Part shown: one piece after another, positions 1,536-55,470 of the stretch
Layout of the letters: each line of letters begins with the position of its first letter
Numbering within the stretch: the first letter of the stretch is position 1
UHGV virus genome: UHGV-1364187
Source: a virus
Strand: one strand, 5' to 3'
DNA length: 64,000 nucleotides
The notes under the pieces: generated by a model
What the model was told of the DNA's origin: nothing
The model's input: the letters and a program-made list of their open reading frames with translations, nothing else
The model's database searches: none
Position numbers and translations under genes: made by a program

Positions 1536-1916
1536 ATGGAAACAAAACAACTAGTATCACCAGCAGTTATAGTGTCAGCAGAAGAAAGGAATGCTAATTA
1601 TGATAATTTTGATAAGTATTATCTTGTCTTATTAGTATTTAATACAGATCAAGGAGAAGAAAGAGATTGGGTTGTAAAAAGAGGTCGTAAAGAAGCATAT
1701 GATCTATTAAAAGATTACATTCAAAATGATCAATATTTTGATTCTATTGCATCAAAAATTCTTGTTAATGGAAATACATTAGGAGACGAATTATGTGTTG
1801 CTAAATTTATGAGCATTATGCAATTAAGATTTAAAGATAATGAATTTAATATTGACAACTATGTTGAACCAGAAGAATACGATATTGAAGAGGCTAACAT
1901 ATTACCAGAAGAATAA
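1536..1916 (+). CDS. hypothetical acidic protein; N-terminus carries the VSPAVIV motif
   Basis: 126-aa ORF with RBS AAAGGAGAG and the conserved promoter element upstream. Confidence 0.55.
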   Translation: METKQLVSPAVIVSAEERNANYDNFDKYYLVLLVFNTDQGEERDWVVKRGRKEAYDLLKDYIQNDQYFDSIASKILVNGNTLGDELCVAKFMSIMQLRFKDNEFNIDNYVEPEEYDIEEANILPEE

Positions 1917-6363: not shown

Positions 6364-8727
6364 ATGGCAACTAGAATTATATCAGTTCCAGCTAGTGAAC
6401 AATTCGAAAACGATACTATTGATTATATGATTGAAGTTAATAGAAAGAGACAGATACCATCAAGTAGAGATGGATTAAAATTTGTTCAAAGAAGAATACT
6501 AGATACTATGACAAGATTTTTAAATTGCTTCAATAAGACTGTAAAAAGCCAATCTATTGTAGGTAGAACAATGGAAATATCCCACCCTCATGGTGGTGGG
6601 GTATATGAAGCAATGAAACCATTAACAAACTGGTTTGAAGAACTTCATCCGCTTATTACAAAACAAGGATCTTTTGGTACAAAATATGGAGACCCTGCAG
6701 CTGCACCACGTTATACGGAAGCAAAAATTTCACAATTTGCAAAAGAAGCGTTAGGTCTATATGACTTAAAAGATTTTGAAAGTATAACAGATTGGTTAAC
6801 GACATATAATAATGATAATGTTGAACCAGAATATTTTCCAGCAGCAATTCCATTATTATTGATCGAAGGGTGTTTTGGTATTGGTATGGGGTTAAAAACA
6901 GAATTACCACCGCATAATTTAGTGGAGGTAATAGATGCAACATTAACTCTGCTTCATAATCCAGATGCAAAAATTATGCTTATACCAGATCAATGTATGC
7001 CATGTTATGTTTTTGATACAGACTTTCAACTTATTTCAAATAAAGGACATGGTTCTGTAACTTTTAGAGGAATAGTTGATATTGAAAAGAGAAATGGAAG
7101 AGATGCATTGATTATTAAATCAGCACCAGATATGGTATATATAAATACTGTTCATGATAAAATTGAAGAATTGGCAGAAGCCAAACAAATTCAATTAGCA
7201 GATTGGTATGAAGAAGATGCATGGAATGGTGATGGTGAAAAATATTCATGGTATGTATGTGAATTAAAGAAAGGTGCAGACCCATATTATACAAGAGATA
7301 TCTTATATAAGAAAACAGAATTAGAACATACTGTTGCTATTTCTTTTGAATCTCTTGATGATGAATATAAACCAGTAAGATATTCTTATAAATCTTATTT
7401 ACAAACATTTATTCAGTTTAGAATGCTTACTAAGTTTAGAGTAATATATTCTAAATTACAATGGTCTCTAACAAGACAACATCAAATAGAAGCATTTATT
7501 AAAGCTATGACATCTGGTCAAATTGATGAGATTATTCATAGAGTAAGACAATCTACTACAAAGAATGATGTAGAGCTTATTGAATATCTTATTCAGCTTC
7601 TAGATATTACAGATTTGCAAGCTAAGTTTATTATTGATGCTAATATCAAGAAACTTAGTCCAGTATATTTACAAGGATATCAAGAAGAATATGCTTCTTT
7701 ACAAGCAGATATTGATAAATATATGTCTGTAGTAGAAAGTGATGATTTGATACTAAGTGAAATTGAACAAGAGTTAATTCAGTTCAAGAATAAGTATGGT
7801 AAACCTAGAAATACTATTGTCATTGATGCTCAAACGGATACAATTCCAAAAGGAGAATTTAAGATTATCATTACACAAAATAACTTCATTAAGAAACTTC
7901 CACTTAATATGAATGGAGTAGGAAGTCTTAAGGGTGATAAGATTAAAACTATAATCAAAGTAGAAAATGATAAAGATATCTTATTATTCGATGAAATTGG
8001 TAAGGTATACAGATTACCAGTACACAAAATTCCAGTATCAGATAAATCTACTAACGGAACGGATGTTAGATTACTATGTAAGAATCTTACGTCAAATATT
8101 GTGACTGTTATGTATACACCAAAAGTACAAGAACTGGCACAATCTGTAGAGCCATATTATCTTACTGCAGTTACAGCAAATGGTAATATTAAGAAACTTG
8201 AACTTCAAGATTTAATTAGTGTACCATTAAGTGGTATCATCTTCTTTAAACTAGATAGTGATGCTATCAGAGATGTAAAGATTGTTCATGATAGACTAGA
8301 CATAGTAGTATATTCATCTGGAGAAGCATTAAGAATTCCAATGAGTGAAATTCCATTACAGAAGAGAAATACAAAAGGTGTTAAGTCTATGAATAACACA
8401 TCTGTTATTGATGGATTTGGAATTGTAACTCCAGATACAACTAATGTATTAGTCATCACTAATAGTGGTAAGATTAACAAACTTAGTATTGTTGCATTAC
8501 CACAAAGTGAACGTAATAAGAAGAGTACTAGAATTATTAAACTTAAACAAGGAGATAGTATTTTCAATGTACATATGTGCAATGATCATAATGTACTTCA
8601 CGTAAATACAACAAATGATAAATTTGATATTCCAGTACAAGATATACCAGATGGAAGTAGTATTTCTGGTGGTAAGAATATGATTTCTCTTAAAGGAGAT
8701 ATTCTTATCAGAACAAGTATTAGATAA
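6364..8727 (+). CDS. type II topoisomerase DNA breakage-reunion subunit (GyrA/ParC/T4 gp52-like)
   Basis: RDGLKFVQRRIL motif, as in GyrA RDGLKPVHRRVL. Active-site region AAPRYTEAKI with the catalytic Tyr. RBS GGAGGAAAC. Terminator immediately downstream. Confidence 0.85.
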   Translation: MATRIISVPASEQFENDTIDYMIEVNRKRQIPSSRDGLKFVQRRILDTMTRFLNCFNKTVKSQSIVGRTMEISHPHGGGVYEAMKPLTNWFEELHPLITKQGSFGTKYGDPAAAPRYTEAKISQFAKEALGLYDLKDFESITDWLTTYNNDNVEPEYFPAAIPLLLIEGCFGIGMGLKTELPPHNLVEVIDATLTLLHNPDAKIMLIPDQCMPCYVFDTDFQLISNKGHGSVTFRGIVDIEKRNGRDALIIKSAPDMVYINTVHDKIEELAEAKQIQLADWYEEDAWNGDGEKYSWYVCELKKGADPYYTRDILYKKTELEHTVAISFESLDDEYKPVRYSYKSYLQTFIQFRMLTKFRVIYSKLQWSLTRQHQIEAFIKAMTSGQIDEIIHRVRQSTTKNDVELIEYLIQLLDITDLQAKFIIDANIKKLSPVYLQGYQEEYASLQADIDKYMSVVESDDLILSEIEQELIQFKNKYGKPRNTIVIDAQTDTIPKGEFKIIITQNNFIKKLPLNMNGVGSLKGDKIKTIIKVENDKDILLFDEIGKVYRLPVHKIPVSDKSTNGTDVRLLCKNLTSNIVTVMYTPKVQELAQSVEPYYLTAVTANGNIKKLELQDLISVPLSGIIFFKLDSDAIRDVKIVHDRLDIVVYSSGEALRIPMSEIPLQKRNTKGVKSMNNTSVIDGFGIVTPDTTNVLVITNSGKINKLSIVALPQSERNKKSTRIIKLKQGDSIFNVHMCNDHNVLHVNTTNDKFDIPVQDIPDGSSISGGKNMISLKGDILIRTSIR

Positions 8728-14354: not shown

Positions 14355-14386
14355 AAGGTGTTTTATTTTAGAAAGGAGTGAATACA

Positions 14387-15792: not shown

Positions 15793-15924
15793 TATACTAA
15801 AATACATCTATAGCGTCAAATGTATTATTTTAACACTATAATAAATATAATCAAACTATACTATTACAATTAGTACAGTTTACAATCACATTATATTAAA
15901 TTAAAAAGAAAGGATGTGTATTTT

Positions 15925-24629: not shown

Positions 24630-25760
24630 ATGGAACTAAATATCAAAAATTTCATAAGAGATGTACTTAAAAAGTACGACACCAGAGTAGATACAAAGTT
24701 ATCAAATTTAAATATATCTACTGATTATACAAGTTTATCAAATAAACCTACATTAAATGGTGTAGAAATATCTGGTAATAAATCATCATCAGATTACAAT
24801 TTAATTGGAGAAGATCATGACTCTTCAACAACAGCTCATAGTGATATTAGATCATTAATATCCACTAATAAAACTACTATAGATTCACACACATCAAATA
24901 CAGATCTACATGTTTCTAGTTCAGATAGAAATTTGCTTACAGCATTAAACCATAATAAAGGTACATTTGAATCAGAGACATTATTACGTGCAGCATATCC
25001 AACAGCATCTAGTGGAGATTATTGCGTTTGTTATAATGGAACTAACTATACTGTTTGGACATACAGTACAGATTGGGTTGATACTGGACAATTAGGAAAT
25101 GTAACATCAGTAAATAATCTTACAGGAGATATTACATTAGATTCTAATAATGTAAATTACGAAACTGGTATTACATTAAAAACAAAGATAGATCAAAATC
25201 AATCCGATATACAGACATCTATAGGAGATTTATCAGCATTACAAACTGTAGATAAAACTTCTATTGTTAATGCAATTAACGAGGTTTTTCTAGAAGTCGA
25301 TAATGGGAAGACTTTATTGGCTAGTGCCATTACCGACAAAGGAGTTACTACTAGCAAAGATGATGAATTTAATACTATGCTAGGAAATCTATATAGTATT
25401 AAATCTGGAAATAATAATAAAGCAATTGTCACTTCTATATTAAGTGAGAATTCTAATAATTATACGCAAATCATGACAAAAGAAAAATACACAGTATATG
25501 CAGAAACTATATATAATGTAGACTCTGTATATACTGATAATGGAAATGGTAGTATAACTATAGACAACGATTATACAACAGTATCATGTTTAGGGTATAT
25601 TACTGTTCTAGATGAAACAAATAAACCAGTTTTTATGAAACCAAATGACAGTAATATGTATTACATGTTATCGTATATGATAGTTATAGATAGTTCTGGA
25701 AACCAAACTACTGGATTATCTGGATTAAAAGTATTGCCTCGACCATGTGTAATATTATAG
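24630..25760 (+). CDS. tail fibre-like protein
   Basis: RBS AAAAAGGAGG. S/T/N-rich beta-type sequence. Confidence 0.45.
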   Translation: MELNIKNFIRDVLKKYDTRVDTKLSNLNISTDYTSLSNKPTLNGVEISGNKSSSDYNLIGEDHDSSTTAHSDIRSLISTNKTTIDSHTSNTDLHVSSSDRNLLTALNHNKGTFESETLLRAAYPTASSGDYCVCYNGTNYTVWTYSTDWVDTGQLGNVTSVNNLTGDITLDSNNVNYETGITLKTKIDQNQSDIQTSIGDLSALQTVDKTSIVNAINEVFLEVDNGKTLLASAITDKGVTTSKDDEFNTMLGNLYSIKSGNNNKAIVTSILSENSNNYTQIMTKEKYTVYAETIYNVDSVYTDNGNGSITIDNDYTTVSCLGYITVLDETNKPVFMKPNDSNMYYMLSYMIVIDSSGNQTTGLSGLKVLPRPCVIL

Positions 25761-25771
25761 GAGAAATAACA

Positions 25772-27028
25772 ATGAACTTAGTTACTAAAATTAATGACAT
25801 AACAGAAATATCTAAAATTAATAAAAATACATTTATAAAAGAATTACAAAATAAAGGATTTGATATTGATGATAATGCAACATACAAAGATATATCTAAT
25901 TATATAAACAAAATAGATATTACTAATAATAATATTCATCTAAATGGTATTTCAACATCATTTATAAATTCTGAATGGGTAGAGCTTAGTTCTCTACCAT
26001 CAGATTTTATAAAACATAAATCTGTAGTATACAATGGAGATATTCATATATTAGGGGGAGATGGAACTAAAAATTCCACTCTTCATTATAAATATGATGG
26101 AACTTCATGGACAAAAGTATCAACATTACCATTTGTATTTATAGATGGTCAGGCTGTAGTGTATAGAGATTGTATACATATAATAGGATCTTCATACAAT
26201 TCGACAGTAAGACCATATCATTATAGATATAACGGAACTTCATGGACAAAATTAACAAATTCACCAGCATCATACCCATATGGAGGATATGCAGTTAATC
26301 ATAACGATAAAATTCATTCTATTGGTGGAACTTATACTTATAACGATAGACATTATACATGGAACGGATCAAAATGGACATCTATAAAATCTGTACCTTT
26401 TGATACAAGATATGGTTGTGGTGTAAGTTATAATAATCACATATATGCAATTGGGAGTAGTATATCATCTAGTAAAAACAGATGGTCTAGATGGTCAGAT
26501 GAAACTTCTAGTTGGGATGATATAAAAACATTATCGGCTTCTTATACAAATGCATATGCTGTTGTATATAATAATAGTCTACATTTACTTGGTGGTTCAG
26601 AAACGAAAAGACATTATTCATTTAATGGATCTAAATGGACTTTAGAAACTACACATGAAAATTTATTATATTATGGTGCATGTGTTATTTGGAATGAACA
26701 ATTTCATATATTAGGTGGAACTGGTACAGAAAATAAACACTATGTTTTATCTAATATAACAGTAAATAATACAATAATAGTAAAAAATACTTCAACTATT
26801 TATCATGAATCTACAGAACCTACAATAACAAAGATAAATGATGAATATGATTGTATTACGTATGTTAAAGATGAATATTTAACCATTAAAGATAATGATA
26901 AAATAACATTTATTCATTCTAATAAAGATAATAAGTGTTATTTACCAAAAGGAAGTAAGATAAACGGTAATATACAAGATATATATGGTGTAATTGATTA
27001 CCCAAATTATCCATGTATTATCGAGTAA
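25772..27028 (+). CDS. Kelch-repeat (beta-propeller) protein, paralog 1
   Basis: Repeated ~45-aa units (IHILGG...YKYDGTSWTK). N- and C-termini are paralogous to 27073-29118. Confidence 0.55.
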   Translation: MNLVTKINDITEISKINKNTFIKELQNKGFDIDDNATYKDISNYINKIDITNNNIHLNGISTSFINSEWVELSSLPSDFIKHKSVVYNGDIHILGGDGTKNSTLHYKYDGTSWTKVSTLPFVFIDGQAVVYRDCIHIIGSSYNSTVRPYHYRYNGTSWTKLTNSPASYPYGGYAVNHNDKIHSIGGTYTYNDRHYTWNGSKWTSIKSVPFDTRYGCGVSYNNHIYAIGSSISSSKNRWSRWSDETSSWDDIKTLSASYTNAYAVVYNNSLHLLGGSETKRHYSFNGSKWTLETTHENLLYYGACVIWNEQFHILGGTGTENKHYVLSNITVNNTIIVKNTSTIYHESTEPTITKINDEYDCITYVKDEYLTIKDNDKITFIHSNKDNKCYLPKGSKINGNIQDIYGVIDYPNYPCIIE

Positions 27029-27072
27029 CATAAGTTAATATTTTTTATAAACAGGAATTGGGGGTGATAAAT

Positions 27073-29118
27073 ATGTCTTTAGTTAATCAAATAAACGACA
27101 TTACAGATAGTATAAAACTATATAAGGATGCATTTATAAAAGAATTAAAAAATAAGAATATTACAATTGATTATGATTCTGGTTTTCAAGAGATATCAGA
27201 AAAAATACAAGATATTTCATCATCAGTAACTGAATTTTCAACATGTGCATATAATGAAGATTACATAAATGGGGTATGGAAAAATGTATCAACATTACCA
27301 GATAGTATATATAAGATGAAAGCTGAAGTTATTGATAATAAAATAGAATGTTTGAATGCTAATTATAGACTAGAATATGATGGATCTTCATGGACTAAAT
27401 TTACTGATATTCCATACTCATGTGGAATTGATATGTGTGTTATAAATTATAATAATGAACTTCATGTATTAGGAGGCGGTACTGGATCTAATAGAACAAA
27501 ACACTATAAATACGATGGTGATTTGTGGACCACAGTGTCAACTATACCATATCAATTTTATAGAGGAATATGTATTGTGTATAATAATGAGATACATCTG
27601 ATAGGTGGATATTCTTCTAATAATTATCATTATAAATATGATGGAAATTCTTGGACAAAAGTGGCAGTGTTACCATTCGCTTCAGTGTACGGTACAGCTG
27701 TAGTGTATAATAATGAAATACATGTTATTTCTGCAAATTCAACAAATGCTTCAAAAGGGAATCATTATAAATATGATGGGACATCATGGAGTTTAGTTAC
27801 TACATTTGAACCTGTAAAAACAAATAATGATAGATCTTGTTATTCAATAGCAGTTGTTTATAATAATAAGATACATGTATTCAATGCGTACGATTCATAT
27901 TATAATACATATGATGGTACATCATGGACTTCTATTGGAAATTACCCATATGGCACATATAGTGCAATTGTTATATATAATAATAAAATACATTCATTGG
28001 GAGGCAGTAATACTAATTTAACACATGTAAAATTGGAATTTTCTAATAATACAATACCTTCAAATATATCTAGTACAATTGTAGATAATATATCAAGTGA
28101 TGATGATATATTTGATAGTATATATTATAAAGGTAAAATATATTCATTTGCTAATGAATATAGATATGAATATGATGGTACATCATGGACTAAAATATCA
28201 GATATACCTAACTTATATGCAAATATTATGAGGTGTGCGGTAGCAATATATGATAATAAAATTCATATATTGGGTGGCGGTTATGCTGAAGATAGAGCTG
28301 GTCATTATTCATATGATGGTACATCATGGACTAGTGTATCATCTTTACCAATAAGATCAGTATACGCTAATGCTATATCGTATAATGGAGAACTTCATCT
28401 TATTGGTGGGGATGGATACACTACAATACATTATAAGTGGGACGGAACTTCATGGACACAACTTACAAATTTACCGTTCGATTCCAAATCAGGAACATGT
28501 GTTATATATAATAATGAAATTCATATAGTAACAAGTGTTGATAGAGGATATGATGTGCACCATTATAAATATGATGGAACGACATGGACTCTTATTCACA
28601 CATTTACTTCAGACGAAATTAATAGACCAGAATACACAAAAATGATATTATATGATAATAAATTGCACTTATTTAGTGAGTTTAATAATAGATATTATAT
28701 ATTTGACGGGACATCGTGGACATATGTATCTAATTATACATACGATGGATATGCTTCCAGTGGTATAGTTATATATAATGATAAAATTAATACTATAGGT
28801 GGATATTCTAAAATGTATAGATATATTATAGATTATAATGAACTTTCTATAAATTGTACAATGATAATTCCTAGTACATCAACAATATACCACGAAACTA
28901 CATCTCCTACTATAACTAAAATAAATGATGATTATAATCTTATATCTTTTATAAAAGGTGAATATTTAACTATTGCTAATAACAACAAATTAATATATGT
29001 GTGTAAGAATGATACTACTAATAAGTGTTATTTACCAAAAGGAACAAAAATTAATGGAACAGAAATAACAACATACGGAGTAGTGGATTATCCTACAACA
29101 GCATGTATTATAGAATAA
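27073..29118 (+). CDS. Kelch-repeat (beta-propeller) protein, paralog 2, with roughly twice as many blades as paralog 1
   Basis: More than 10 Kelch-like blades (YNNEIHLIGG...YKYDGNSWT). C-terminus (...KCYLPKG.KING...YGVVDYP..CIIE) is shared with 25772. Confidence 0.55.
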   Translation: MSLVNQINDITDSIKLYKDAFIKELKNKNITIDYDSGFQEISEKIQDISSSVTEFSTCAYNEDYINGVWKNVSTLPDSIYKMKAEVIDNKIECLNANYRLEYDGSSWTKFTDIPYSCGIDMCVINYNNELHVLGGGTGSNRTKHYKYDGDLWTTVSTIPYQFYRGICIVYNNEIHLIGGYSSNNYHYKYDGNSWTKVAVLPFASVYGTAVVYNNEIHVISANSTNASKGNHYKYDGTSWSLVTTFEPVKTNNDRSCYSIAVVYNNKIHVFNAYDSYYNTYDGTSWTSIGNYPYGTYSAIVIYNNKIHSLGGSNTNLTHVKLEFSNNTIPSNISSTIVDNISSDDDIFDSIYYKGKIYSFANEYRYEYDGTSWTKISDIPNLYANIMRCAVAIYDNKIHILGGGYAEDRAGHYSYDGTSWTSVSSLPIRSVYANAISYNGELHLIGGDGYTTIHYKWDGTSWTQLTNLPFDSKSGTCVIYNNEIHIVTSVDRGYDVHHYKYDGTTWTLIHTFTSDEINRPEYTKMILYDNKLHLFSEFNNRYYIFDGTSWTYVSNYTYDGYASSGIVIYNDKINTIGGYSKMYRYIIDYNELSINCTMIIPSTSTIYHETTSPTITKINDDYNLISFIKGEYLTIANNNKLIYVCKNDTTNKCYLPKGTKINGTEITTYGVVDYPTTACIIE

Positions 29119-32038: not shown

Positions 32039-32074
32039 AAAAAGAAGTAGCACTTTATAGTGCTACTTCTTTTA
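32036..32074. terminator. bidirectional terminator between convergent genes
   Basis: aaaaaaa-gaagtagcac-tttatag-tgctacttc-tttt. Confidence 0.6.
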
Positions 32075-33902
32075 CTCTTGGTTCAATTGTTGCTGGAATT
32101 ATCATTGCAACTGAACCATTATGTTCTTCTTCCTCAGTTGGTTCTTGAACTATACTTACAGAACCATTAGTTTGATTTCTATATTGTGATAATAAGTAAA
32201 TATTATCTCTATTATGAAGTTTATCTTCTAATGGTAAACTTACACTTTCATCATTAAGATTCTCTTCTTGTTGTTGCATAACTTCGGCTCTTGTTCTCAT
32301 TCTACTGCTAGAAGAAGTAAGACCTAAATTAGCAATATCATCTTTAAGAGTTTCTTTAAATACTGGAACAAATTTATCTATATCAACATCAAGTCTAATA
32401 TGATTTGGTGATGTAAATGGTTGGCAAATATAATATCTAGGAGTACATTTACCTCTACATTTAAATCTATTAAATGACATATATTTATCACCTTTACTAT
32501 CATATTCTACATCAATAATAGCTCCCCAATCAATTACATTAAGAATTAAAATTGACTCTGCTATTTGTGCTCTTCCTAATACTCTAGCTACATCTTGTAC
32601 ATTATTCAATCTAGCATTATCAGTTTTAGCTGTAGCATCACGATTTAATTGTCCGAATGAAATTACAGGGATATCTTTTAATATAGCAAATGTTTTCATT
32701 TCTTCTGCGACTTTTCCTAATTCAACTCTCATATCAGGACATTTATACGTAGATCTAATACAGTTAATATAATCAAAGATAAGAGCTACCATTTCAACTC
32801 CTTCATCTTCTAAATCTTCTGCCAATGTATAAAAATATCCTGTATCAACTGAACCATTTGGTACATATTTTACAATGATATCTATTGGAGATTCGTCAGT
32901 TAAACATAATTCTCCATCTTCTCTAAGCATTCTAATTACTTCATCAAGACTATAATTTTGTAATTCTGAGTCTGGCGTTAATGCTATATCGAATATACGT
33001 TCAATAGTTTCAGTAATTTGATTTTCCATTGTAAGTAATACAACAGCTGGTCTTTTTGTTGCATCTTTTGGTTGATAATATCTATTAGCTTTTTTCATTT
33101 GTAGTAATAAATTTGTCGCTAATAATGATTTACCAGTATTTGGACATGCAAAGTACATATATAAACGTCCACTTTCAAATCCACCATATGTAAGTTCATT
33201 CATACCCTGCATTCCACATAATAATCTATTATTATTTGATGATAATCTATCATAAGCATCAGTTACAACATTTTGAAATATACCATCTTTCAATGAAAAG
33301 ATTTGATCTGTCATAGATTGTGTTGCAACTCTTCTAAAATTAGATTTGATTTTATCTACCATAGTTTCAATTTCTTTAACAATTGCACCTTTAGATAGAT
33401 AATTACTTGACTTAAATCTAGTCAATACATCAATAAAATCATCTACATCATTGTAGATAAATGAGTATTTTAAAGTTTCTGATACTGTACCATTTACAAA
33501 TTCCAATTCTTCTGTAGATAAAATAAAGTCTTCATAATTTATATCTAAAACATTGTCGTCCATAAACCCATCGTTTATATATTTAATGATAACGTCTGGT
33601 TGTCTTAAATTTTTATCTAATCTTGCTTCTAGAGCTTTTTTAATAAATCTAATCCTCTTCATCTTCTCAGGATCAGATTTATAAATATCCATATTTATAA
33701 TTTCAAATAAGTTTCTTAAACTAATTAGGTGAGATCTCTTTACTGATAAATTTAATGATAGTGTATAGAAACACATAAGATTTAAAGATGTCAAATCAAA
33801 ATTGACATCTATTAAATTTACTTTAGATTTATCTTTTACTACATTATGTCCTTGTCCTGTTATTCTTTTTCTTCTTGTAAGTGACATACTTCCTACACTC
33901 AT
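32055..33902 (-). CDS. DnaB/gp41-family RecA-fold ATPase (putative replicative helicase)
   Basis: GRLYMYFACPNTGKSLLATNLL Walker A at about residue 250. Start moved to the ATG at 33902, after GGAGGGG. C-terminus ends IIPATIEPRVKEVAL. Confidence 0.5.
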   Translation of the reverse strand: MSVGSMSLTRRKRITGQGHNVVKDKSKVNLIDVNFDLTSLNLMCFYTLSLNLSVKRSHLISLRNLFEIINMDIYKSDPEKMKRIRFIKKALEARLDKNLRQPDVIIKYINDGFMDDNVLDINYEDFILSTEELEFVNGTVSETLKYSFIYNDVDDFIDVLTRFKSSNYLSKGAIVKEIETMVDKIKSNFRRVATQSMTDQIFSLKDGIFQNVVTDAYDRLSSNNNRLLCGMQGMNELTYGGFESGRLYMYFACPNTGKSLLATNLLLQMKKANRYYQPKDATKRPAVVLLTMENQITETIERIFDIALTPDSELQNYSLDEVIRMLREDGELCLTDESPIDIIVKYVPNGSVDTGYFYTLAEDLEDEGVEMVALIFDYINCIRSTYKCPDMRVELGKVAEEMKTFAILKDIPVISFGQLNRDATAKTDNARLNNVQDVARVLGRAQIAESILILNVIDWGAIIDVEYDSKGDKYMSFNRFKCRGKCTPRYYICQPFTSPNHIRLDVDIDKFVPVFKETLKDDIANLGLTSSSSRMRTRAEVMQQQEENLNDESVSLPLEDKLHNRDNIYLLSQYRNQTNGSVSIVQEPTEEEEHNGSVAMIIPATIEPRVKEVAL

Positions 33903-33925
33903 TAATAATCCCCTCCATTTATTCA

Positions 33926-35107
33926 TTAGAGGTCTTCTATTATCTGTTTAACCTCTTCTGATGTTATACAATCATACCCTTCTTTAAGATTGATATAGAT
34001 TGCTATTTTTTCATATTTATCTAATTGTCCGTCAAGTAAAAATAAATATTGTTCTAATTCTTTATGCTGTTCTTTTACTTGTTCAACAATCTTTCTCTTT
34101 TTAGAATCACTTTGTTTTATTTTTACTCTATTGTTATTACTATAATACTTTTTTATAATCTCGATTTTGCTTAATTGTTCCTGATTTGGTACAATTAGGA
34201 ATTCTAATCTTAGAAATTCTATATCTTCTAAAATAGAATTGACATAAAAAATAATCTCATCTGGAGATCTATCTATCATATCATCCAGATTAAGAGTTAT
34301 ATATTTTCTACATTCTATTTGCTGGAAATAACAATAATGTTCACTTGTATTACAATTATAGAATGATATAAAGAAACCTTTTGCCCCTTCATCGCCAAAT
34401 GACCATCTATACGGTGAACCACAGTAATAGAAATATTTATCAAAACATCCTGTTGTATGAACATGTCCTGATAATATATAACCTTTACAATTACAGAAAT
34501 CATTCATAGTAAATACTTTATTTCGTGGATTAGTATTATCTAATGTAATTACTTTATCTTGATATACTGCACCTTTATACATACCATGAACAACAGCAAT
34601 ATCATATAAACCACTTTCTTTCATTATATTATCATAATATTCTTGTGGTTTATTATATTCTTCTGGTAAACATAATACTCTAATACCTTTAATGATTTCA
34701 AATCTAGCTTGTTCTACTATACGGATATCTAATTCTGGATCACTTAAATAAGAATAGAATAACTTCAATTGTCCAGAATCATGTTCTTTAGTACCATCTA
34801 TGATTAATAAAGTAGCATTTTTTCTTTTTACTTGTTCTACTATATCTTTCATCAACAATAATCCATACATTATAGTCTGAGAATTTGCCATTTCTTTTTT
34901 ATGAAAATAATCTCCAGCAATAACAAATATATCATAGTTTATATTTTCTAATGGTGATAGCATCTGATCTCTGATAACAGAATATTGGTAGGATAAATCC
35001 ATCCTACCAATATGTAAGTCTGCAGTAGATACTATAGTTAATATATTATTTGGTCTTACATTTAAATTTTCATCTTCTGGTCTTGTAAACACTGCAGGAA
35101 TAATCAT
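33926..35107 (-). CDS. calcineurin-like metallophosphoesterase, Mre11/SbcD-like nuclease
   Basis: Motifs STADLHIG, FVIAGDYFH and ILSGHVHT. N-terminus is MIIPAVFTRPEDE. RBS AAAGGAG. Confidence 0.6.
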   Translation of the reverse strand: MIIPAVFTRPEDENLNVRPNNILTIVSTADLHIGRMDLSYQYSVIRDQMLSPLENINYDIFVIAGDYFHKKEMANSQTIMYGLLLMKDIVEQVKRKNATLLIIDGTKEHDSGQLKLFYSYLSDPELDIRIVEQARFEIIKGIRVLCLPEEYNKPQEYYDNIMKESGLYDIAVVHGMYKGAVYQDKVITLDNTNPRNKVFTMNDFCNCKGYILSGHVHTTGCFDKYFYYCGSPYRWSFGDEGAKGFFISFYNCNTSEHYCYFQQIECRKYITLNLDDMIDRSPDEIIFYVNSILEDIEFLRLEFLIVPNQEQLSKIEIIKKYYSNNNRVKIKQSDSKKRKIVEQVKEQHKELEQYLFLLDGQLDKYEKIAIYINLKEGYDCITSEEVKQIIEDL

Positions 35108-35121
35108 AATATCAAACTCCT

Positions 35122-35607
35122 TTAAATTGTATATTTATATTTAGGTGTTAAAGTGAATATATAACTTAAAACATTATAGATTGTTGTGATCAATGTTGCA
35201 TATATTTCATATTGGATATTATCATTACAAGATCCGAACTTAGATTGTTGATCATAATATCCATTATATGTAAATTGATTATTCTTAAATTCAAACTTAA
35301 AATAATTATTTGCGTGGGAGATTTTTAATGTGATGGCATTAAGTCTGATATTAATAAAGAATGAATTCTTTTCTGCATTCTCAATATTATATGAGAAACT
35401 AAAATCTTCATCTTCTACTTTATCAATATCAAATGCCGAACATGCATACACAAGATCTGTTAATACTGTTGATAAGTTTAATGAATTTAAGTTCTTTACA
35501 TACTTTCGTATACATCTCCATATAATGAAAGCTTTCATTATAGGAACAAATATTTTTAATTTAGTATTGTTTAGTTTTGTTAAAGATTTTACTGTTTGTA
35601 ATATCAT
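35122..35607 (-). CDS. hypothetical protein
   Basis: 161-aa ORF with RBS GGGGGAAGAG. Confidence 0.45.
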   Translation of the reverse strand: MILQTVKSLTKLNNTKLKIFVPIMKAFIIWRCIRKYVKNLNSLNLSTVLTDLVYACSAFDIDKVEDEDFSFSYNIENAEKNSFFINIRLNAITLKISHANNYFKFEFKNNQFTYNGYYDQQSKFGSCNDNIQYEIYATLITTIYNVLSYIFTLTPKYKYTI

Positions 35608-35608
35608 A

Positions 35609-36457
35609 TTACTCTTCCCCCTTTTTAAATATATTTGGAACTGTTATAAAATTATCAGATATAGTTCCAGCCTCATTTAATGTAGTATGAATAATATGTT
35701 CTTTATTATAAATTACATCTGGAATATTCATACCACGTTTTAATACTTCTATGTCAATATCATTACCGTCTGAATGAATAGCATATACATTTGACATAAA
35801 TTTTTTAACTTTTTCTTCATCACCATTAAATAATGATGTTACTCTATAAATAAATTTATCAATATTCATATGTGGATTATCAGGATAACTTTGTAAAGTT
35901 AAATCTTGATAGAATTGGTCAAATTCTGCTATATGTTTGGCTAATCCAACAAATTTGACAGATTTATCAAATTCAATATCAGATGAATCACCAGAATAGT
36001 ATATATAACCATTATAGTGATTTATAGCTAATGCATAACAGTTTTTATATTCCCCATGTTCTACTGGAACAAATAAAATTTCTGTGTCCATAATATCATT
36101 GTAATAATCTTTTACTTCATACATTAACGGATCAACTTTGCACATTCCAAGATATGCTACAATTGAACCTTTATCTGGAAAATATACGGTTGGCTTAATA
36201 CCTTTTATATAATTACAATATTCAATTAAAGAACCTAAACTGCCTACATGATCTGAATGAAGATGAGTAATAATAATATTAACTGTTTTAATATTATCAT
36301 CTATAAGTTTAAGTCTAAGAATCTGTTTAAAAATATCACCACCACAGTCTATAAGTGTAAATACATTATATTCTGGTAACACGAAAAATGCTGAATTGTT
36401 GTGTTGATCTTCATTAAAACAACTTCCTCTACCAATAAAATTTAATAATTGTTCCAT
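35609..36457 (-). CDS. metallo-beta-lactamase-fold hydrolase
   Basis: ITHLHSDHVGSLGSL (HxHxDH). C-terminus ITVPNIFKKGEE carries the shared motif. Confidence 0.65.
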   Translation of the reverse strand: MEQLLNFIGRGSCFNEDQHNNSAFFVLPEYNVFTLIDCGGDIFKQILRLKLIDDNIKTVNIIITHLHSDHVGSLGSLIEYCNYIKGIKPTVYFPDKGSIVAYLGMCKVDPLMYEVKDYYNDIMDTEILFVPVEHGEYKNCYALAINHYNGYIYYSGDSSDIEFDKSVKFVGLAKHIAEFDQFYQDLTLQSYPDNPHMNIDKFIYRVTSLFNGDEEKVKKFMSNVYAIHSDGNDIDIEVLKRGMNIPDVIYNKEHIIHTTLNEAGTISDNFITVPNIFKKGEE

Positions 36458-36474: not shown

Positions 36475-37200
36475 TTAATAATTTGAATTATATATTGGAT
36501 TTAAATTTTGAGTAAATTGCAATCTAGCATAATAAGTATATACAGCTCCACTAAATGTCTGATATGCAAGATTCATAAACTCAATATTTTCATTAATAGA
36601 TAAATCTACTATATGATTATTTGCTAAAGGTTTTGTCTTAGATAATTGTAAGATAAAACATCCAGCAATTTCATATCCTTCTTTTATAAGCATATCCATA
36701 TATGCAGCTAATTGACACCAATACTTATAACCAATATGATTAGATGTCTTAAAATCCCCTACATATAATCTTCCATTAATCTTTAGTATTACATCTATAG
36801 TCCCACCATAATATTCACATACAGTAGGTCTTTCTATAGCAAATACTTCTACGTTATAATCTCTATTAAGTTGATTCCACCATGTTTTAAATCCAGAAAT
36901 ACAATTGAAAATTTGATTAGATATATTTCTTGGATATATAGAATAATCGACTTCATAATTACTATCAATCATGATCTTATCACAAAGATCATGAACTATT
37001 GTTCCAATATTAGCATAAAAGTCTAGTTCTTCTTCATAATTTTTATGTCTAAAACCAAGACTATTTGCCCAATTAGTAATATAATCATCATGCATCAATG
37101 ATAATATTTCTGTTACTCTTGGTACATTTCTTCCATTACATTGATATCTATCACAAGATATATATGGAGAGAAATTCATATAAGATAAAATGTTATTCAT
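36475..37200 (-). CDS. PD-(D/E)xK family nuclease (RecB/lambda-exo-like)
   Basis: IERP...GTIDVILKINGRLYVGDFKTS...QLAAYMDM corresponds to the E, D, DxK and QxxxY motifs. Confidence 0.45.
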   Translation of the reverse strand: MNNILSYMNFSPYISCDRYQCNGRNVPRVTEILSLMHDDYITNWANSLGFRHKNYEEELDFYANIGTIVHDLCDKIMIDSNYEVDYSIYPRNISNQIFNCISGFKTWWNQLNRDYNVEVFAIERPTVCEYYGGTIDVILKINGRLYVGDFKTSNHIGYKYWCQLAAYMDMLIKEGYEIAGCFILQLSKTKPLANNHIVDLSINENIEFMNLAYQTFSGAVYTYYARLQFTQNLNPIYNSNY

Positions 37201-37283: not shown

Positions 37284-37694
37284 TTATTCTACTTCATACA
37301 CATCATATTGTGCATGTGAGATATTATAATCAAACCCTATTACATATTTTCTATCAGGATCATCTATAAGTTTTTGTATCTCTTTTGGTACTATATTAAT
37401 TATATTACCAACTCCAAAAGATATACATGTACTATCATAATTATCTTTATTTGTACTTGGTACTATCACCTTATGTTTTTTCACTTTACAAGTACAGTTA
37501 TCTAATGTATATTGATTAATACTATATATATTATAATAAATTTTACTATCGTCTAATGTTTCTAATATAGGACCATTCTCTTTGAGTAACTTATCTAAAT
37601 AATGAATATACAATGCTCTATCTTGATTCATATATACTGTTCTTTCTAAACTATCTTTTAATTTATTTACATCTAATTCGAGATTTATTAACAT
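37284..37694 (-). CDS. hypothetical protein
   Basis: 136-aa ORF. Bidirectional terminator hairpin at 37249-37288. Confidence 0.45.
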   Translation of the reverse strand: MLINLELDVNKLKDSLERTVYMNQDRALYIHYLDKLLKENGPILETLDDSKIYYNIYSINQYTLDNCTCKVKKHKVIVPSTNKDNYDSTCISFGVGNIINIVPKEIQKLIDDPDRKYVIGFDYNISHAQYDVYEVE

Positions 37695-37960
37695 GATAAT
37701 TCACTCCTTTTATTTTTCATATTTTGTTTACGAGCAATAGTAGCTCTTATTAAACATTCTCTTTTATTTTTCTTAATTACTTTTACAACTTTTTGATACC
37801 TTTTCTTACTTAGTTTACGTAATCTTACAGTTAAGTCCAGATGTACTGTAGATTTACTAACGCCGAATACTTCTGCTGTTTCTCTTAGAGTAGATTTGTT
37901 TTTTACATAATAATCCGCTTCATCTAAAATCCTTTGTTTAATACGTGCATTATTTCTCAT
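37688..37960 (-). CDS. SpoIIID-like HTH transcription regulator
   Basis: IKQRIL...YYVKNKSTLRETAEVFGVSKSTVHLDLTVRL aligns with B. subtilis SpoIIID IKERTIKIGKYIVETKKTVRVIAKEFGVSKSTVHKDLTERL. RBS AAAGGAGG. Conserved promoter upstream. Confidence 0.7.
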   Translation of the reverse strand: MRNNARIKQRILDEADYYVKNKSTLRETAEVFGVSKSTVHLDLTVRLRKLSKKRYQKVVKVIKKNKRECLIRATIARKQNMKNKRSELSC

Positions 37961-44677: not shown

Positions 44678-45388
44678 TTAAGATTTAAATGGTGCTAATT
44701 GAGCAGAATACATAGTTTTGAATGTTGTAGATGTATCTAAGTCTGCTACTTTCTTAGCGATATGATAGAATGCCATAGTATTTAAACTATCTTCTAATTC
44801 TTCGGCATGAGCATCCAATAAAGCAACTGTAAGTTGACCTGATACTGCTAAAGATGGCACATGTAATCTATCTAGATATTTTTCGATGAATCCAACAGAA
44901 AGAATTTGATATGTTGATACTGTTTCATAATCAATATAATCGATTAATTCTTCCATAAGATCTTCACCTAAGATTTGATATTTGCATACAATATCAAAAT
45001 CTAATTCATCTTTCATTTCTCTAATGATTTCTGGATCTAATACTTGGAATCTTGCAACAAGATTAAGATCTAAGAAATTCTTAAAGTTTCTCATTAGATA
45101 AGAATCTAATTTTTGATATTTACAGATACATTGCCAATCTAATTTGTCTTTGTATCTATCGATATCACTTGTTGATAATACTTGATATTTTGATACTAGT
45201 CTATATGTAGTAGCTTTGAATTCTTCTGTATATTCATTAGCTGGATTTTCTAAAGTATCAAAAATAACTTTGATATCATCGGCATCCATCTCGAATCTAG
45301 AGAAGACATCAACACGTTCATCTACAGGAGTAGATGATTTTAAAACATGATTAATAAGATCATTATTAGCTTTAATTTTAGTAATCAT
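44678..45388 (-). CDS. repeat protein with five ~21-aa [CS]KYQ(V/I)L...D.LD units
   Basis: Units start SKYQVLSTSD, CKYQKLDSYL, ARFQVLDPEI, CKYQILGEDL and STYQILSVGF. RBS AAAGGAGG. Confidence 0.5.
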   Translation of the reverse strand: MITKIKANNDLINHVLKSSTPVDERVDVFSRFEMDADDIKVIFDTLENPANEYTEEFKATTYRLVSKYQVLSTSDIDRYKDKLDWQCICKYQKLDSYLMRNFKNFLDLNLVARFQVLDPEIIREMKDELDFDIVCKYQILGEDLMEELIDYIDYETVSTYQILSVGFIEKYLDRLHVPSLAVSGQLTVALLDAHAEELEDSLNTMAFYHIAKKVADLDTSTTFKTMYSAQLAPFKS

Positions 45389-46235: not shown

Positions 46236-47408
46236 TTACAATCTTGTCTTAAGAACTTCTAAAATCTTAAATTGTAAAGTTGATGGATTAATTAATTCAT
46301 CACCTCTCATATTTACAACATTATCAATATTTACTCCATAATTATTACACATACCAGATGCAGTTTCTTTATTAATCTTACCAATTTCAATATGGTAATC
46401 AAATCTACCATTTCTAAGTATAGCATCATCTAATTTATCTTTATAATTAGTAGTACCAATAAAGATACAATTATTTGGAGAGTTAATACCATCTAATACA
46501 TTAAGAAGATCACCAATTGTATCATATTTCATACTCTTCATATAATTATCAAATGGATTATATTGTTTATCTTTCTTATTATCATCTTTATCAGATCTTG
46601 TTCCTGTAGAACAATCTATATCTTCAAACAATATTACAGAATTAGTCATTCTTGAAATATTATTTATAAGATTATCATTAATATAATTAACTTTTATAAT
46701 TACTAATCTATATCCCATATAACTAGCAATAGCCTTAGCAAATGATGATTTACCAGTTCCAGGTTCTCCATATAATAGAATACCTATATTATGTTTTATT
46801 TGATGCTTTTTATAGATAAAGTCATCTTTCTTAAACTTCTCAAGTATATCTATAATCTGTTCTTTTTTGTCTGAGAATATATTATTCATTGAATATTTAT
46901 CATATTCATATTGATAAAAACTACCATTTTCTGAATATTGTCTAACATCTAATTTATTTACACTTTCTCCTCCTTTGTTTATATAATTAGTAATATATTC
47001 AAATTCTTGCTTCGCATTGACTCCACATATAGAAATATTTATTATATGATTACGAGAATCAGAAGCATCAAATGGAATATTACTAATTGTATATAAACAC
47101 TTATTATGCCATCCAGTGAAATGTAGATTAGAAGGTATATTATTGTCACTTGATGTTGATTTACTTTCATCTAAATATCTATTTGGTTTATAAAATTTAT
47201 TTAAATTTGGAAATAATTCATGCAAGACTTTACATGTATTGTTATAAGGTTCTAACCAAAACATATCATCAACTTGTATCTTATAACATATCTTTTGTTC
47301 AATTGATTTCTTCACTAATGGTGTAACTGTTCTTACAACACTATTTCCTAAGTTTGTTAATCCTGCTACTGCTGCTAATTTCATTAATTGTTTAACTTCT
47401 TTATTCAT
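46236..47408 (-). CDS. BCS1-like classic-clade AAA+ ATPase
   Basis: GILLYGEPGTGKSS, ILFEDIDC, NCIFIGTTNYKDKLDDAILRNGRFDYHIEIG. RBS AAGGAG. Confidence 0.7.
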   Translation of the reverse strand: MNKEVKQLMKLAAVAGLTNLGNSVVRTVTPLVKKSIEQKICYKIQVDDMFWLEPYNNTCKVLHELFPNLNKFYKPNRYLDESKSTSSDNNIPSNLHFTGWHNKCLYTISNIPFDASDSRNHIINISICGVNAKQEFEYITNYINKGGESVNKLDVRQYSENGSFYQYEYDKYSMNNIFSDKKEQIIDILEKFKKDDFIYKKHQIKHNIGILLYGEPGTGKSSFAKAIASYMGYRLVIIKVNYINDNLINNISRMTNSVILFEDIDCSTGTRSDKDDNKKDKQYNPFDNYMKSMKYDTIGDLLNVLDGINSPNNCIFIGTTNYKDKLDDAILRNGRFDYHIEIGKINKETASGMCNNYGVNIDNVVNMRGDELINPSTLQFKILEVLKTRL

Positions 47409-47622: not shown

Positions 47623-48498
47623 TTAATTTCTTTCACATAATAATTTTAATTGTAATTCACTTTGATTATATGGTGCTTCCATATCTTTAAGAATCTTATC
47701 TGGATCGGCACCAAAATATCTACACATATTTTCTGCAACTTCTCTATTATGTATTGGTTTAACTTCAAAGATCATATCAAATCTACCACTACGTAATAAA
47801 GCTTCATCTAATTTTTCTATATGATTCGTAGTAGCAATAAACATAACTTCTTCTTGAGAGTTAATACCATCCATTACATTTAACAATCCAGCGATATTAT
47901 TTTTATCTTCTACAACTTCCCCATTATCATTAACATTATTAGTTTTCTTATCTAAATATCTATCTATATCTTCAAATACATATATTGTTTCTTCGTATTT
48001 TGGGAGAGTTTTTAATTTAAATGGATCATTTACAGTAATAATACGTCTATTTGTATAATATGCTATAGCTTTGATAAGACTAGTTTTTCCTGTACCTGGT
48101 TCGCCATATAATAAAACTCCAGTCTTATGTATAATATGTTTTTCTTTATAAAAATCTGTATTTGAATTAAATTTGTCTATAAATTTAATAAGTGGTGATA
48201 TATCATCAAAGAATAATTCATCTAAAGATTTACAATATACACGATTAATTAAACCGTTTATAGTATTTGTATTACTATCAAATTCTTGAACATATACAGA
48301 ATTTGGTCTTGATTTAATAGGTGGATGATATTCATCAATTTCTTTAAAAATTTCCAATTTATTATGTCCTATAATATAAAACTTACACGTATTAAAATTT
48401 TTCATTACCTTATTGTCAGTACCTATAGTTTTGAATTCACTTTTTATATCAAATATAATATATGATGATTTATATATACATATATGAATACCGCTCAC
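47623..48498 (-). CDS. BCS1-like classic-clade AAA+ ATPase, paralog 2
   Basis: GVLLYGEPGTGKTS, VFEDIDRY, VMFIATTNHIEKLDEALLRSGRFDMIFEV. The apparent start is a GTG. A consensus sigma-A promoter lies upstream. Confidence 0.65.
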   Translation of the reverse strand: MSGIHICIYKSSYIIFDIKSEFKTIGTDNKVMKNFNTCKFYIIGHNKLEIFKEIDEYHPPIKSRPNSVYVQEFDSNTNTINGLINRVYCKSLDELFFDDISPLIKFIDKFNSNTDFYKEKHIIHKTGVLLYGEPGTGKTSLIKAIAYYTNRRIITVNDPFKLKTLPKYEETIYVFEDIDRYLDKKTNNVNDNGEVVEDKNNIAGLLNVMDGINSQEEVMFIATTNHIEKLDEALLRSGRFDMIFEVKPIHNREVAENMCRYFGADPDKILKDMEAPYNQSELQLKLLCERN

Positions 48499-53354: not shown

Positions 53355-53996
53355 TTATTTTTCTTTTGGTTCTATTGTTGCTGGAACAATTAATTGTTCA
53401 ATTCTATCAACTTTTTGTTGTAATTGGTTAATCTGATTGTACATAAATCTATTTTGTTCATATAAAGGTGTAATCATTGCACTGAATAACCTACCCATAT
53501 CATATACAATTTGTTGCGTATTGAAATGATATTCTGTTTCTCCTAAAGAATCATTTATATATGTTTCGTTAGTTTTATCATCAATAGATTCCATTATTTC
53601 TTTAGAATCATATATTGGATTTGGTAATTGAAAATTTGGATCGTGGTTTTGATCTGTATAACTTCCATTCATATAGATAGATGGTAACAATTCATAAGAT
53701 ATCCAATTCTTAAATTCTTTAGCACATGGCATCTTTGAAGCATAAATAAGATTGAATACATCTGGAAGTTTAATAAAGTTCGTCATTTGCTCTCTACTGA
53801 TAGAATCAGTGACGTTACGTTTCGTAACGTCATCACAATGATCATTAATAACCTTTCTAAAACTATTCTTACTATACCCTAAAATATCTAATACATCATT
53901 AGCACAGAATAATGTATCCGTTTGGTTACCATTTTCTGCTGGTATGATTCTTACACTTCCTAGATTGTTAAAGATAAATTCTTGTACTTTATTCAT
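53355..53996 (-). CDS. Bro-N domain protein
   Basis: GSVRIIPAENGNQTDTLFCANDVLDILGYS fits the Bro-N pattern. C-terminus LIVPATIEPKEK. Start at the ATG after AAATGGAGGAATC. Confidence 0.55.
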   Translation of the reverse strand: MNKVQEFIFNNLGSVRIIPAENGNQTDTLFCANDVLDILGYSKNSFRKVINDHCDDVTKRNVTDSISREQMTNFIKLPDVFNLIYASKMPCAKEFKNWISYELLPSIYMNGSYTDQNHDPNFQLPNPIYDSKEIMESIDDKTNETYINDSLGETEYHFNTQQIVYDMGRLFSAMITPLYEQNRFMYNQINQLQQKVDRIEQLIVPATIEPKEK

Positions 53997-54087
53997 TTTT
54001 GATTCCTCCATTTATTTTAAATTTAATTAGAATATTTTTATTCTAATCACTTATATAATATATATAATCAAAATTTTAAAATATTAC

Positions 54088-54684
54088 TTATTTTTCTTCT
54101 TCTATCGTTGCTGGAACAATAAGTTTACCTTGGACTATTGGATACTTAGGTAAATTTTCATAATCGTCACTACCATTATTAATCATAACAGTACAATTAT
54201 GATCTATAAGAGATTTATCTATTAAATATTCTCCTAATTGTTCTGGAGTTGCTAATATATCATCATTAAATACCATATGTTCTTGACCATTAGGTTTTAT
54301 TATCATATATACCATAGAATCATATGAATTAGTAGAAAAACCATTTAGATTACAACTATCTATATACATAGGACATACTTCAAATGTTCTATTTATAATA
54401 TTACCATTATTATATTGAACATTATCTATACAACTATATATTTCATATCTAGCATTTTCTAAATCTTCCCATTGAATATTACTATGCTCTTTTAAATATT
54501 GAATGGTATAATTTGTAACTTGTGTGTTATCTATAATATTTACTTCATCTTGAATATAAAATTCCATATATAAAGTGCTATTTTTATCGGTATGATATGA
54601 TTGAAATAGTGGATTATCACTTACAATACAAGTGCTCATTCCTACTTCATCTTTTGATACTAATACATAAAAAATTTTATTCAT
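54088..54684 (-). CDS. hypothetical protein; C-terminus LIVPATIEEEK
   Basis: Start at the ATG after AAGGAG. Confidence 0.5.
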   Translation of the reverse strand: MNKIFYVLVSKDEVGMSTCIVSDNPLFQSYHTDKNSTLYMEFYIQDEVNIIDNTQVTNYTIQYLKEHSNIQWEDLENARYEIYSCIDNVQYNNGNIINRTFEVCPMYIDSCNLNGFSTNSYDSMVYMIIKPNGQEHMVFNDDILATPEQLGEYLIDKSLIDHNCTVMINNGSDDYENLPKYPIVQGKLIVPATIEEEK

Positions 54685-54712
54685 AATATACATCTCCTTA
54701 TATAGGTAATAA

Positions 54713-54749: not shown

Positions 54750-55470
54750 AAAATCCAATTGTCCCATTAATTTTAAACGGTCCAATATTAAATGAACCCT
54801 CTATTTTTGACTGTTTAAAAAGATCAAACATAGAATGTTTATTATTTTCAGTATTATTAGTATTAGGTTGTTCATTTGCTACATTTCTAGGAACAATAAC
54901 AGCTGGTGTGATCATTTCATTATTTCTAATCTCATAATGTGTGCCATAATATTCTTGTCCAAGTCCTTGCTCAACACCAGCAAAATTAATATTTGAACAT
55001 CCACTATCTATAACATCTCCATCTACCATTTGATTAACAACATTTTCTAATGACCCCATAGGGTTTGTTATCGGATATAGTCTACTTAAATCACATTTAC
55101 AATCATAATCACATTGAACATATAGTTCTGGTTTTGATGGATATGGATTTCCATATAGATCACATTGTTGTACTTGAACTATTCTTCCTTTATAACTACA
55201 TGGAATAATATTTGCATCATCAGTTAATACTGAACTAGTTTTATCACAAAATACAACAGTACAATTATCTGATATATCATATCCTAACATTTTAAGATTT
55301 GTCAATAGTTTTTCTGCAAATATAGAATTTCCTAATTCAATTCTGATTGAAGAAGATAATGGAAAATCTTTAATATATACTTCTTTAGCACTTTCTGGAT
55401 CAAATGTACAATCGTCAGATATGATAAATTTGCCTAGTGAATAATTTAATACATATAACATTTCTACCAT
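54748..55470 (-). CDS. hypothetical Cys-rich protein containing ITPAVIVPR near the C-terminus
   Basis: 240-aa ORF with RBS AAGGAGG. Confidence 0.5.
   Translation of the reverse strand: MVEMLYVLNYSLGKFIISDDCTFDPESAKEVYIKDFPLSSSIRIELGNSIFAEKLLTNLKMLGYDISDNCTVVFCDKTSSVLTDDANIIPCSYKGRIVQVQQCDLYGNPYPSKPELYVQCDYDCKCDLSRLYPITNPMGSLENVVNQMVDGDVIDSGCSNINFAGVEQGLGQEYYGTHYEIRNNEMITPAVIVPRNVANEQPNTNNTENNKHSMFDLFKQSKIEGSFNIGPFKINGTIGF

Follow-up and report, generated by a model that had tools for sequence, protein, structure and literature searches.

A short terminal peptide with a genome-specific sequence recurs on DNA-metabolism proteins of an uncultivated gut jumbo phage and its relatives

In a 64,000-nucleotide stretch of the virus genome UHGV-1364187 (the window), a short hydrophobic peptide with the consensus [LM]-I-[IVST]-P-A-[TV]-[IF] recurs at the ends of unrelated proteins, among them a DnaB-like helicase, an Mre11-like nuclease and a small adaptor-like protein. 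In related phages these proteins carry a peptide of comparable pattern; its sequence varies from one genome to the next but agrees among the proteins of any one genome, and this points to a common partner that co-evolves with it. The explanation we prefer, with a probability of roughly 0.6, is that the peptide is a short linear docking motif by which proteins of replication, recombination and (late) transcription, as well as accessory and selfish DNA-binding proteins, are tethered to a single hub, probably encoded by the phage, with which it co-evolves.

Motif copies in the window

The strict form of the motif, [ILVM][ILVMST]PA[TV][IF], occurs six times in the 66 proteins of the window (19,478 aa), and PA[TV][IF] is found at those six places only, preceded each time by two hydrophobic or small residues ([ILVM][ILVMST]). 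On the minus strand, MIIPATIE (32082..32105) forms residues 608-615 of the DnaB-like helicase (gene 32055-33926), 8 residues before its end, and MIIPAVF (35087..35107) forms residues 1-7 of the Mre11-like metallophosphoesterase (gene 33926-35107), within an N-terminal extension of about 22 residues that precedes the catalytic core. On the plus strand, LVSPAVIV (1551..1574) occupies residues 6-13 of the product of open reading frame (ORF) 1536 (gene 1536-1916), a small acidic adaptor-like protein whose gene lies directly after that of a RecD-like helicase. The remaining copies are again on the minus strand: LIVPATIE at residues 207-214 of a Bro-N protein, 4 residues from its C-terminus (53370..53393; gene 53355-54011), LIVPATIE at residues 191-198 of the 201-residue ORF 54088, 3 residues from its C-terminus (54100..54123; gene 54088-54693), and MITPAVIV at residues 186-193 of the 240-residue ORF 54748 (54892..54915; gene 54748-55470), these last two proteins being without annotation. 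The terminal placement claimed in the first-pass annotation of this DNA holds for five of the six sites, which lie at most 10 residues from a protein terminus; the copy in ORF 54748 is internal, 47 residues before the C-terminus, with an N/T/Q-rich stretch after it.

That the recurrence is a chance pattern, or the by-product of a DNA or RNA element (promoter, terminator or recombination site) at gene ends, is effectively refuted. Six copies are observed where 0.037 are expected, and every one of 2000 shuffles of the proteome gave at most one. A position-specific scoring matrix (PSSM) built from the motifs of the relatives alone places all six sites within the top 8 of about 19,000 window positions, and across 23 genomes the motif is 13.9 times denser within 25 residues of a terminus than internally (57 vs 18 hits; Fisher p=5e-27; seed instances included). 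The three PATIE copies do share CCAGCAAC[AG]AT[AT]GAA, as a nucleic-acid element would predict; however, the DNA flanks (30 bases on each side) are at background identity (0.30-0.60), and the 21 bases of the motif are 0.48-0.86 identical between sites with varying synonymous codons, a level explained by the same peptide being encoded under a strong codon bias (CCA 68% and GAA 87%). No copy lies in the non-coding DNA of the window, its six-frame translation yields a single further match, a chance one inside a 12-codon fragment, with no other in-frame copy, and the relatives hold the physicochemical pattern in entirely different sequences. The proposal that conservation lies at the peptide level and is not that of a DNA repeat is thus confirmed. 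Exact k-mer repeat statistics were uninformative owing to the N/K/I-rich composition.

Nine instances had been claimed originally; besides the six above there were three that fell away, each lying outside the top 22 PSSM hits. These are the C-terminal ITVPNIFKKGEE of the metallo-β-lactamase (MBL)-fold hydrolase (35609..36457, minus strand; 'ITVPNIF'), a peptide that the orthologs in the related loci L001, L002 and L087 lack, 'VIPITEE' at the C-terminus of the 42664 ORF, and the N-terminal MATRIISVPASEQFE of the GyrA-like topoisomerase subunit (6364..8727, plus strand; 'IISVPASE'). The topoisomerase N-terminus is a family-conserved sequence, MAETIIxxxxLEQYKxD, which stays constant whatever motif the genome carries. 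Two weak motif-like peptides were left uncounted, the internal STPVIFDD at residues 33-42 of an unannotated 126-residue protein (2434-2814, plus strand) and NLNPIYNSNY at the C-terminus of the Cas4-like nuclease (36475-37200, minus strand).

Co-variation of the motif among related phages

The source of the window is an uncultivated jumbo phage from a gut metagenome, distantly related to Bacillus phage AR9/PBS1. The top cultured-phage matches of its helicase, at about 30% identity, are Bacillus phage AR9/PBS1 and Staphylococcus jumbo phages, and no close relative was found among cultured phages by megablast. A single-protein query of IMG/VR returned no close relatives either, an alignment query being needed to recover them; the relatives in IMG/VR number more than 390. 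A single-protein search for ORF1536 homologs returned one fragment. The relatives, which come from pig-gut and other metagenomes, comprise 80 IMG/VR loci and six metagenome loci for the comparison of the helicase with the Mre11-like protein.

In about 90 related loci the motif is found at the C-terminal end of the helicase and at the N-terminal ends of the Mre11-like protein and the small adaptor (ORF1536 family), in the general form M/φ-φ-x-[P/G/A/C]-φ-x-[F/Y/I/V] (φ, hydrophobic residue), often followed by acidic residues. Among 119 helicase homologs, φ-x-P-φ-x-φ lies in the last 30 residues of 54, against 9.3 in shuffled tails (maximum 18), and the motif is 29 times denser in these tails than in the remainder of the protein. 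The helicase-tail motif also has a Met before it, at the position that the initiator Met takes in the N-terminal copies.

The helicase C-tail and the Mre11-like N-terminus carry the same variant within a genome and a different one between genomes. The helicase/Mre11-like pair is MIIPATI/MIIPAVF in the window, ESPVTFV/ISPVNFL in L001, LQPMVTF/MIPMVKF in L005, IRGMIYE/IPGMVYE in L010, MIPALLF/MIPALYF in L011, MYCPFSI/LYCPFDI in L013, LIDPLIE/LIDPLKP in L026, INPFIHV/MNPFIHI in L036, MRDALEF/MRNAIEF in L037, MIEGIFF/MINGIEF in L039 and LIMPVIF/MMPVIF in L086. Permutation of the genomes gives p<1e-4 for this pairing; a first co-variation test with BLOSUM-scored 7-mers was noisy from low-complexity matches, its usable output being the permutation of the summed score. 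Even where two phages share 63-70% identity in the helicase, their motifs differ. It had been suggested that the code is peculiar to this phage, and absence from orthologs in related phages was to count against the motif; orthologs of the helicase and the Mre11-like protein do carry it, each genome with its own variant, and what is genome-specific in this clade-wide system is the sequence.

Adaptors of the ORF1536 family carry one or two N-terminal copies that match the helicase tail of their own genome (p≤5e-5 over 29 genomes), as in GNMCRIVNA/MGKEMVRII of L027, NIVTRVKVA/QQIVTRLNP of L040 and AIVPIKIAC/VIQPIVKVS of L038 (helicase tail/adaptor). The family has a second motif near its C-terminus, an acidic F-[DN]-I-x-[DE]-Y (residues ~104-112 of the window protein), which, unlike the N-terminal one, is nearly constant across genomes, and this near-constancy suggests a second, conserved partner.

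Further proteins carry the motif in some relatives. In one sub-clade it is also borne by the β'-C subunit of the non-virion RNA polymerase (nvRNAP), the ortholog of AR9 gp154, and by a superfamily 2 (SF2) helicase, the ortholog of AR9 gp156; seven loci, representing six distinct genomes since L021 and L022 are near-duplicates, show the same variant on the three C-tails. The helicase, nvRNAP β'-C and SF2 tails read ICPIYFIED, ISPIYFLNGD and RSPIYFFDQ in L032, PIYYFED, ICPIYYLNGD and GSPIYYL in L020, and KVPFTFVSK, VKPFTFVNR and KIPFYFIDK in L034. Sporadic carriers are HNH endonucleases in L013 and L007 (the latter recognised by sequence features, with no family hit), a Cas4-like nuclease with a clear C-terminal motif in L002 and L088, and a small protein of L002 with a weak PC4 hit and tandem copies. 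Tandem copies are also seen elsewhere, with three in L019, two in L021 and two in adaptors.

Turning to the cultured relative AR9, its Mre11-like protein gp002 has no N-terminal extension, and its DnaB-like helicase gp007 (L004 3583-5268) ends in ...EKDSGIPF, resembling the C-terminal tip DDD[IL]PF of the bacterial single-stranded DNA-binding protein (SSB); this tip may represent a different tail code in cultured relatives.

Structural context

AlphaFold2 (AF2) modelling of the helicase with an alignment of its homologs gave a confident core, whereas residues 532-609 had a predicted local distance difference test (pLDDT) score below 50, and the motif, which stands at the end of a disordered C-terminal tail of about 90 residues, was left undocked. 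These tails vary in length and composition among the homologs. For ORF1536, residues 1-23 were predicted to be disordered, followed by a small α/β core (residues 26-100, pLDDT ~90) and a disordered acidic tail. No docking of the motif in cis was seen in the AF2 models of either protein.

Short linear motifs are defined as stretches of 3-10 residues with few fixed positions, lying in a disordered region. The motif has a core of 7-8 residues with few fixed positions, both modelled copies are in disordered tails, it occurs on unrelated proteins, as independent acquisition would have it, and is kept in orthologs while the flanks diverge, and gains and losses are seen between close relatives. With this predicted disordered context it has the features typical of short linear motifs carried on flexible tails.

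Genomic setting

The window has 27% G+C, is densely coded and forms part of the 256,505-bp metagenome contig ena:ERZ27229639:k119_250412. Its genes for DNA enzymes encode the DnaB-like helicase (PF20307/PF03796), the Mre11-like metallophosphoesterase, the MBL-fold hydrolase, the Cas4-like nuclease, the RecD-like helicase and a two-subunit type IIA topoisomerase; other genes include Bro-N, two AAA ATPases, an endolysin and many tail-fibre-like genes. The adjoining AAA ATPase genes (46236-47408 and 47623-48498, both on the minus strand) have VAT/Cdc48/p97 and mitochondrial Bcs1 as best PDB matches, and both match PHROG 7485, to which no function is assigned there. A 90-residue SpoIIID-like helix-turn-helix protein (37688-37960, minus strand; PF12116, E=9e-19) points to a spore-forming Firmicutes host.

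Other terminal peptides are shared as well. The near-identical C-terminal TFSYPVAES, SLSYKVEEP and TFSYPVAES end three consecutive large ORFs (14378-15748, 15916-17520 and 17550-18839, plus strand), and YP..CIIE ends ORFs 25745-27028 and 27058-29118; both sets look like paralogous tail-fibre modules. A 236-residue protein (44678-45388, minus strand) consists of repeats of about 25 residues (..YQxLSxxxIxxxxDxLDW..) and has no family match.

Upstream of the window, on the source contig (L089), a RecA-like gene appears split into two ORFs (L089 2067-2531 and 2877-3674) about 345 bp apart, the split point falling between 'INHITQ' and 'GGNTPIY' segments, which suggests interruption by an intron or other insertion; the 'AITPAQ' found in this gene is read-through and was rejected as a motif copy. 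About 5 kb upstream of the window, a 395-residue protein with a weak tubulin/FtsZ GTPase-domain hit (L089 4816-6003; E=8.9e-5, below the Pfam cutoff) has the N-terminus MKTKLFGVGAAGNKA.

Discussion

If the motif serves for docking, all copies in one genome would be read by a single putative receptor, most likely phage-encoded, which would gather the motif-bearing enzymes at the replicating, transcribing phage genome. Its clients would be the DnaB-like helicase, the Mre11-like nuclease, the ORF1536-family adaptor and Bro-N and, in relatives, nvRNAP β'-C, the SF2 helicase, the Cas4-like nuclease and HNH endonucleases. Several copies per tail, together with oligomeric clients, would provide avidity, and receptor and motif would drift together, leaving each genome with its own variant. 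The co-variation within genomes lends indirect support to a putative binding to a defined pocket of a folded partner. The common docking partner proposed in the first-pass annotation finds strong support in co-variation across three to five unrelated families in dozens of phages and in the disordered context of the motif; the docking step itself, and with it the binding, the phage-encoded receptor and the recruitment function, we infer.

As to the identity of the reader, a clamp had been named among the conceivable partners, yet a phage sliding clamp is unlikely because group-1 jumbo phages are reported to lack both a classical clamp and a primase (PMC7824862). Since the motif changes even between phages with helicases 63-70% identical, a conserved host pocket (β clamp or SSB) is unlikely too, and a fast-evolving phage protein is the likelier reader. 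The receptor gene most likely lies outside the 83 kb read. Candidates in view are the ORF1536 adaptor, by its ERH-like core, and a zinc-ribbon protein of 276 residues (2973-3803, plus strand), whose only family hit is a weak one to the Elf1-type zinc ribbon. The latter protein has an invariant CxH...CxxC zinc ribbon, a helical core, Y/N/G-rich and long Q/P/M/G/Y-rich low-complexity flanks and a conserved K-x-φ-x-φ tip, and in 57 related loci its gene stands between those of the RecD-like helicase and the topoisomerase; its layout resembles that of SSB (fold, linker and tip) or of a condensate scaffold. Other proteins were considered and set aside: the two AAA ATPases were rejected as clamp loaders, being members of the Cdc48/VAT/Bcs1 clade, a conserved 136-residue ORF at 9361-9771 is a baseplate piece, and a 125-residue ORF upstream of the window, with no family hit, looks structural by its gene position and sequence features.

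Several observations weigh against a single docking hub. No receptor was found among the candidates examined within the 83 kb read, and neither topoisomerase subunit nor the RecD-like helicase bears the motif in any genome compared. No orthologs of Bro-N, ORF 54088 and ORF 54748 were present in the fetched loci, and their copies rest on this genome. Neither the helicase end nor the Mre11-like N-terminus of AR9, which among cultured phages is the nearest relative, shows the code. Phylogeny confounds the co-variation tests to some degree, and the list of clients is incomplete because the reading covers 83 kb of a 256-kb genome.

Among other explanations, it is unlikely that the peptide is a genome-specific address code that gates access to replicating DNA by import into, or retention within, a compartment or factory made by the phage, is read by a fast-evolving phage receptor and has been copied by resident homing endonucleases and accessory DNA-binders, its divergence excluding the proteins of co-infecting competitors. 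In a related version, which we also consider improbable, the peptide would be a localisation or import signal, recognised by a transport or gating protein and admitting to a phage-built replication compartment or factory only 'self' proteins and those selfish endonucleases that copied the code. Every annotatable client does act on DNA, including nvRNAP β'-C and the HNH homing endonucleases (three of the six window clients are unannotated), the code differs sharply between related genomes, and the contig encodes the weak tubulin/FtsZ-like protein and the two Cdc48/Bcs1-like AAA ATPases. Import in Chimalliviridae is species-selective as well, though no linear signal was found there (PMC11087766). 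However, chimallin is reported to be missing from AR9-like phages (PMC13282480), the 83 kb read showed no compartment gene, and the topoisomerase subunits and the RecD-like helicase, devoid of the motif in all genomes, would have to piggyback. A tag for an AAA+ machine, marking clients for remodelling, translocation or timed degradation, has two candidate readers in the classical-clade ATPases of the window, and the motif, being terminal and accessible, is placed as unfoldase tags typically are, on flexible tails. Nonetheless, we give this little credence, since avidity docking accounts better than threading for tandem copies and for motifs as far as 47 residues from a terminus, the destruction of a replicative helicase and an RNA polymerase is hard to rationalise, and only one other locus was seen to have AAA homologs close to its helicase module.

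Docking on a host hub, the β sliding clamp or SSB, is very improbable in our judgement, even though clamp- and SSB-binding motifs likewise stand on the termini of many DNA enzymes, the group-1 jumbo phages are reported to have no classical clamp or primase of their own (PMC7824862) and the AR9 helicase ends in the SSB-tip-like DSGIPF. The motif does not match the β-clamp consensus QL[SD]LF / QLxLxL, having no Q and a pattern centred on Pro/Gly/Ala, nor the PIP pattern Qxx[ILM]xx[FY][FY], and no clamp gene was seen in the 83 kb read. Clamp-binding motifs are conserved across phages and hosts, as the clamp pocket is, whereas this one differs between close relatives and varies far more widely than the highly conserved host clamp and SSB pockets would lead one to expect. 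As for SSB, its tip is an acidic run with [IL]PF at the extreme C-terminus, whereas the copies found here stand at N-termini or 0-47 residues from the C-terminus; the SSB-tip mode needs a free C-terminal carboxylate and is excluded by the N-terminal and internal copies. Finally, we think it most unlikely that the peptides are homotypic stickers needing no separate receptor, whose strands bind each other and thereby build a multivalent assembly or condensate. Such an assembly would fit the identical peptides of a genome, the tandem copies, the oligomeric clients and a conserved prion-like zinc-ribbon protein in the same module, but the central proline is ill-suited to strand-strand zippers, and self-association is known for low-complexity motifs, a type to which these do not belong.

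Should the docking explanation be correct, one peptide would appear to bring the replicative helicase together with a recombination nuclease, an adaptor and the phage RNA polymerase on one and the same partner, in a large uncultivated clade of gut jumbo phages reported to lack clamp and primase. Phage replisomes are commonly described one protein at a time, and the peptide would offer a handle on the organising hub, with new accessory proteins of replication and transcription recognisable from the tag alone. The fast divergence of the code may keep competing phages orthogonal, may help to evade host decoys or may be simple drift. If the RNA polymerase and the helicase share a hub, this could explain priming without a primase; and if the peptide were to prove an address code, jumbo phages would gain their first known linear sorting signal.

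Comparison with known systems

Full-text literature searches returned nothing similar to this motif. One close parallel in kind is given by clamp docking tails, which comprise the β-clamp motifs QL[SD]LF/QLxLxL, the PIP box Qxx[ILM]xx[FY][FY] and the C-tails of T4 gp43, gp33 and gp55 that bind gp45. As in these, a short hydrophobic peptide stands on the flexible termini of many unrelated DNA enzymes, the reading by one hub being what we propose here; a coupling like that of replication to late transcription by the T4 gp45 hub would be suggested by the copy on nvRNAP β'-C. Unlike clamp tails, the motif has no Q, is centred on Pro/Gly/Ala and changes from genome to genome, in a group reported to lack a classical clamp (PMC7824862). 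The interactome of the SSB tip (DDD[IL]PF) shares with it overlapping client types (helicases and nucleases) and a core with Pro and an aromatic residue; however, the polarity is reversed, many enzymes carrying the peptide for one putative reader, and the copies are not restricted to the extreme C-terminus. The T7 gp4 helicase and the gp2.5 SSB both dock on T7 DNA polymerase through acidic C-tails. Here too a helicase has a flexible C-tail whose tip is common to another replication protein, and acidic residues often flank it, yet the T7 tails need a terminal aromatic residue and carboxylate, whereas the present copies are N-terminal or up to 47 residues from the end, and the set of clients is much wider. 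Likeness to the Rad51 FxxA motif with its BRC mimics, and to ERH-type peptide-binding adaptors, is weak and may be due to chance. In the phage-nucleus import of Chimalliviridae (PicA/PIC), folded surface patches are recognised and no linear signal was found (PMC11087766). Both cases concern jumbo phages with multisubunit RNA polymerases and a species-specific choice among proteins for replication and transcription as well as homing endonucleases, but here a linear peptide is involved and no chimallin or compartment is known for AR9-like phages. The principle of recruitment by a hub and a peptide is already known from clamp motifs, T4 gp45 tails, T7 tails and the SSB tip; the present motif fits none of those consensuses, spans replication and transcription proteins in a clade reported without a clamp, and is specific to each genome.

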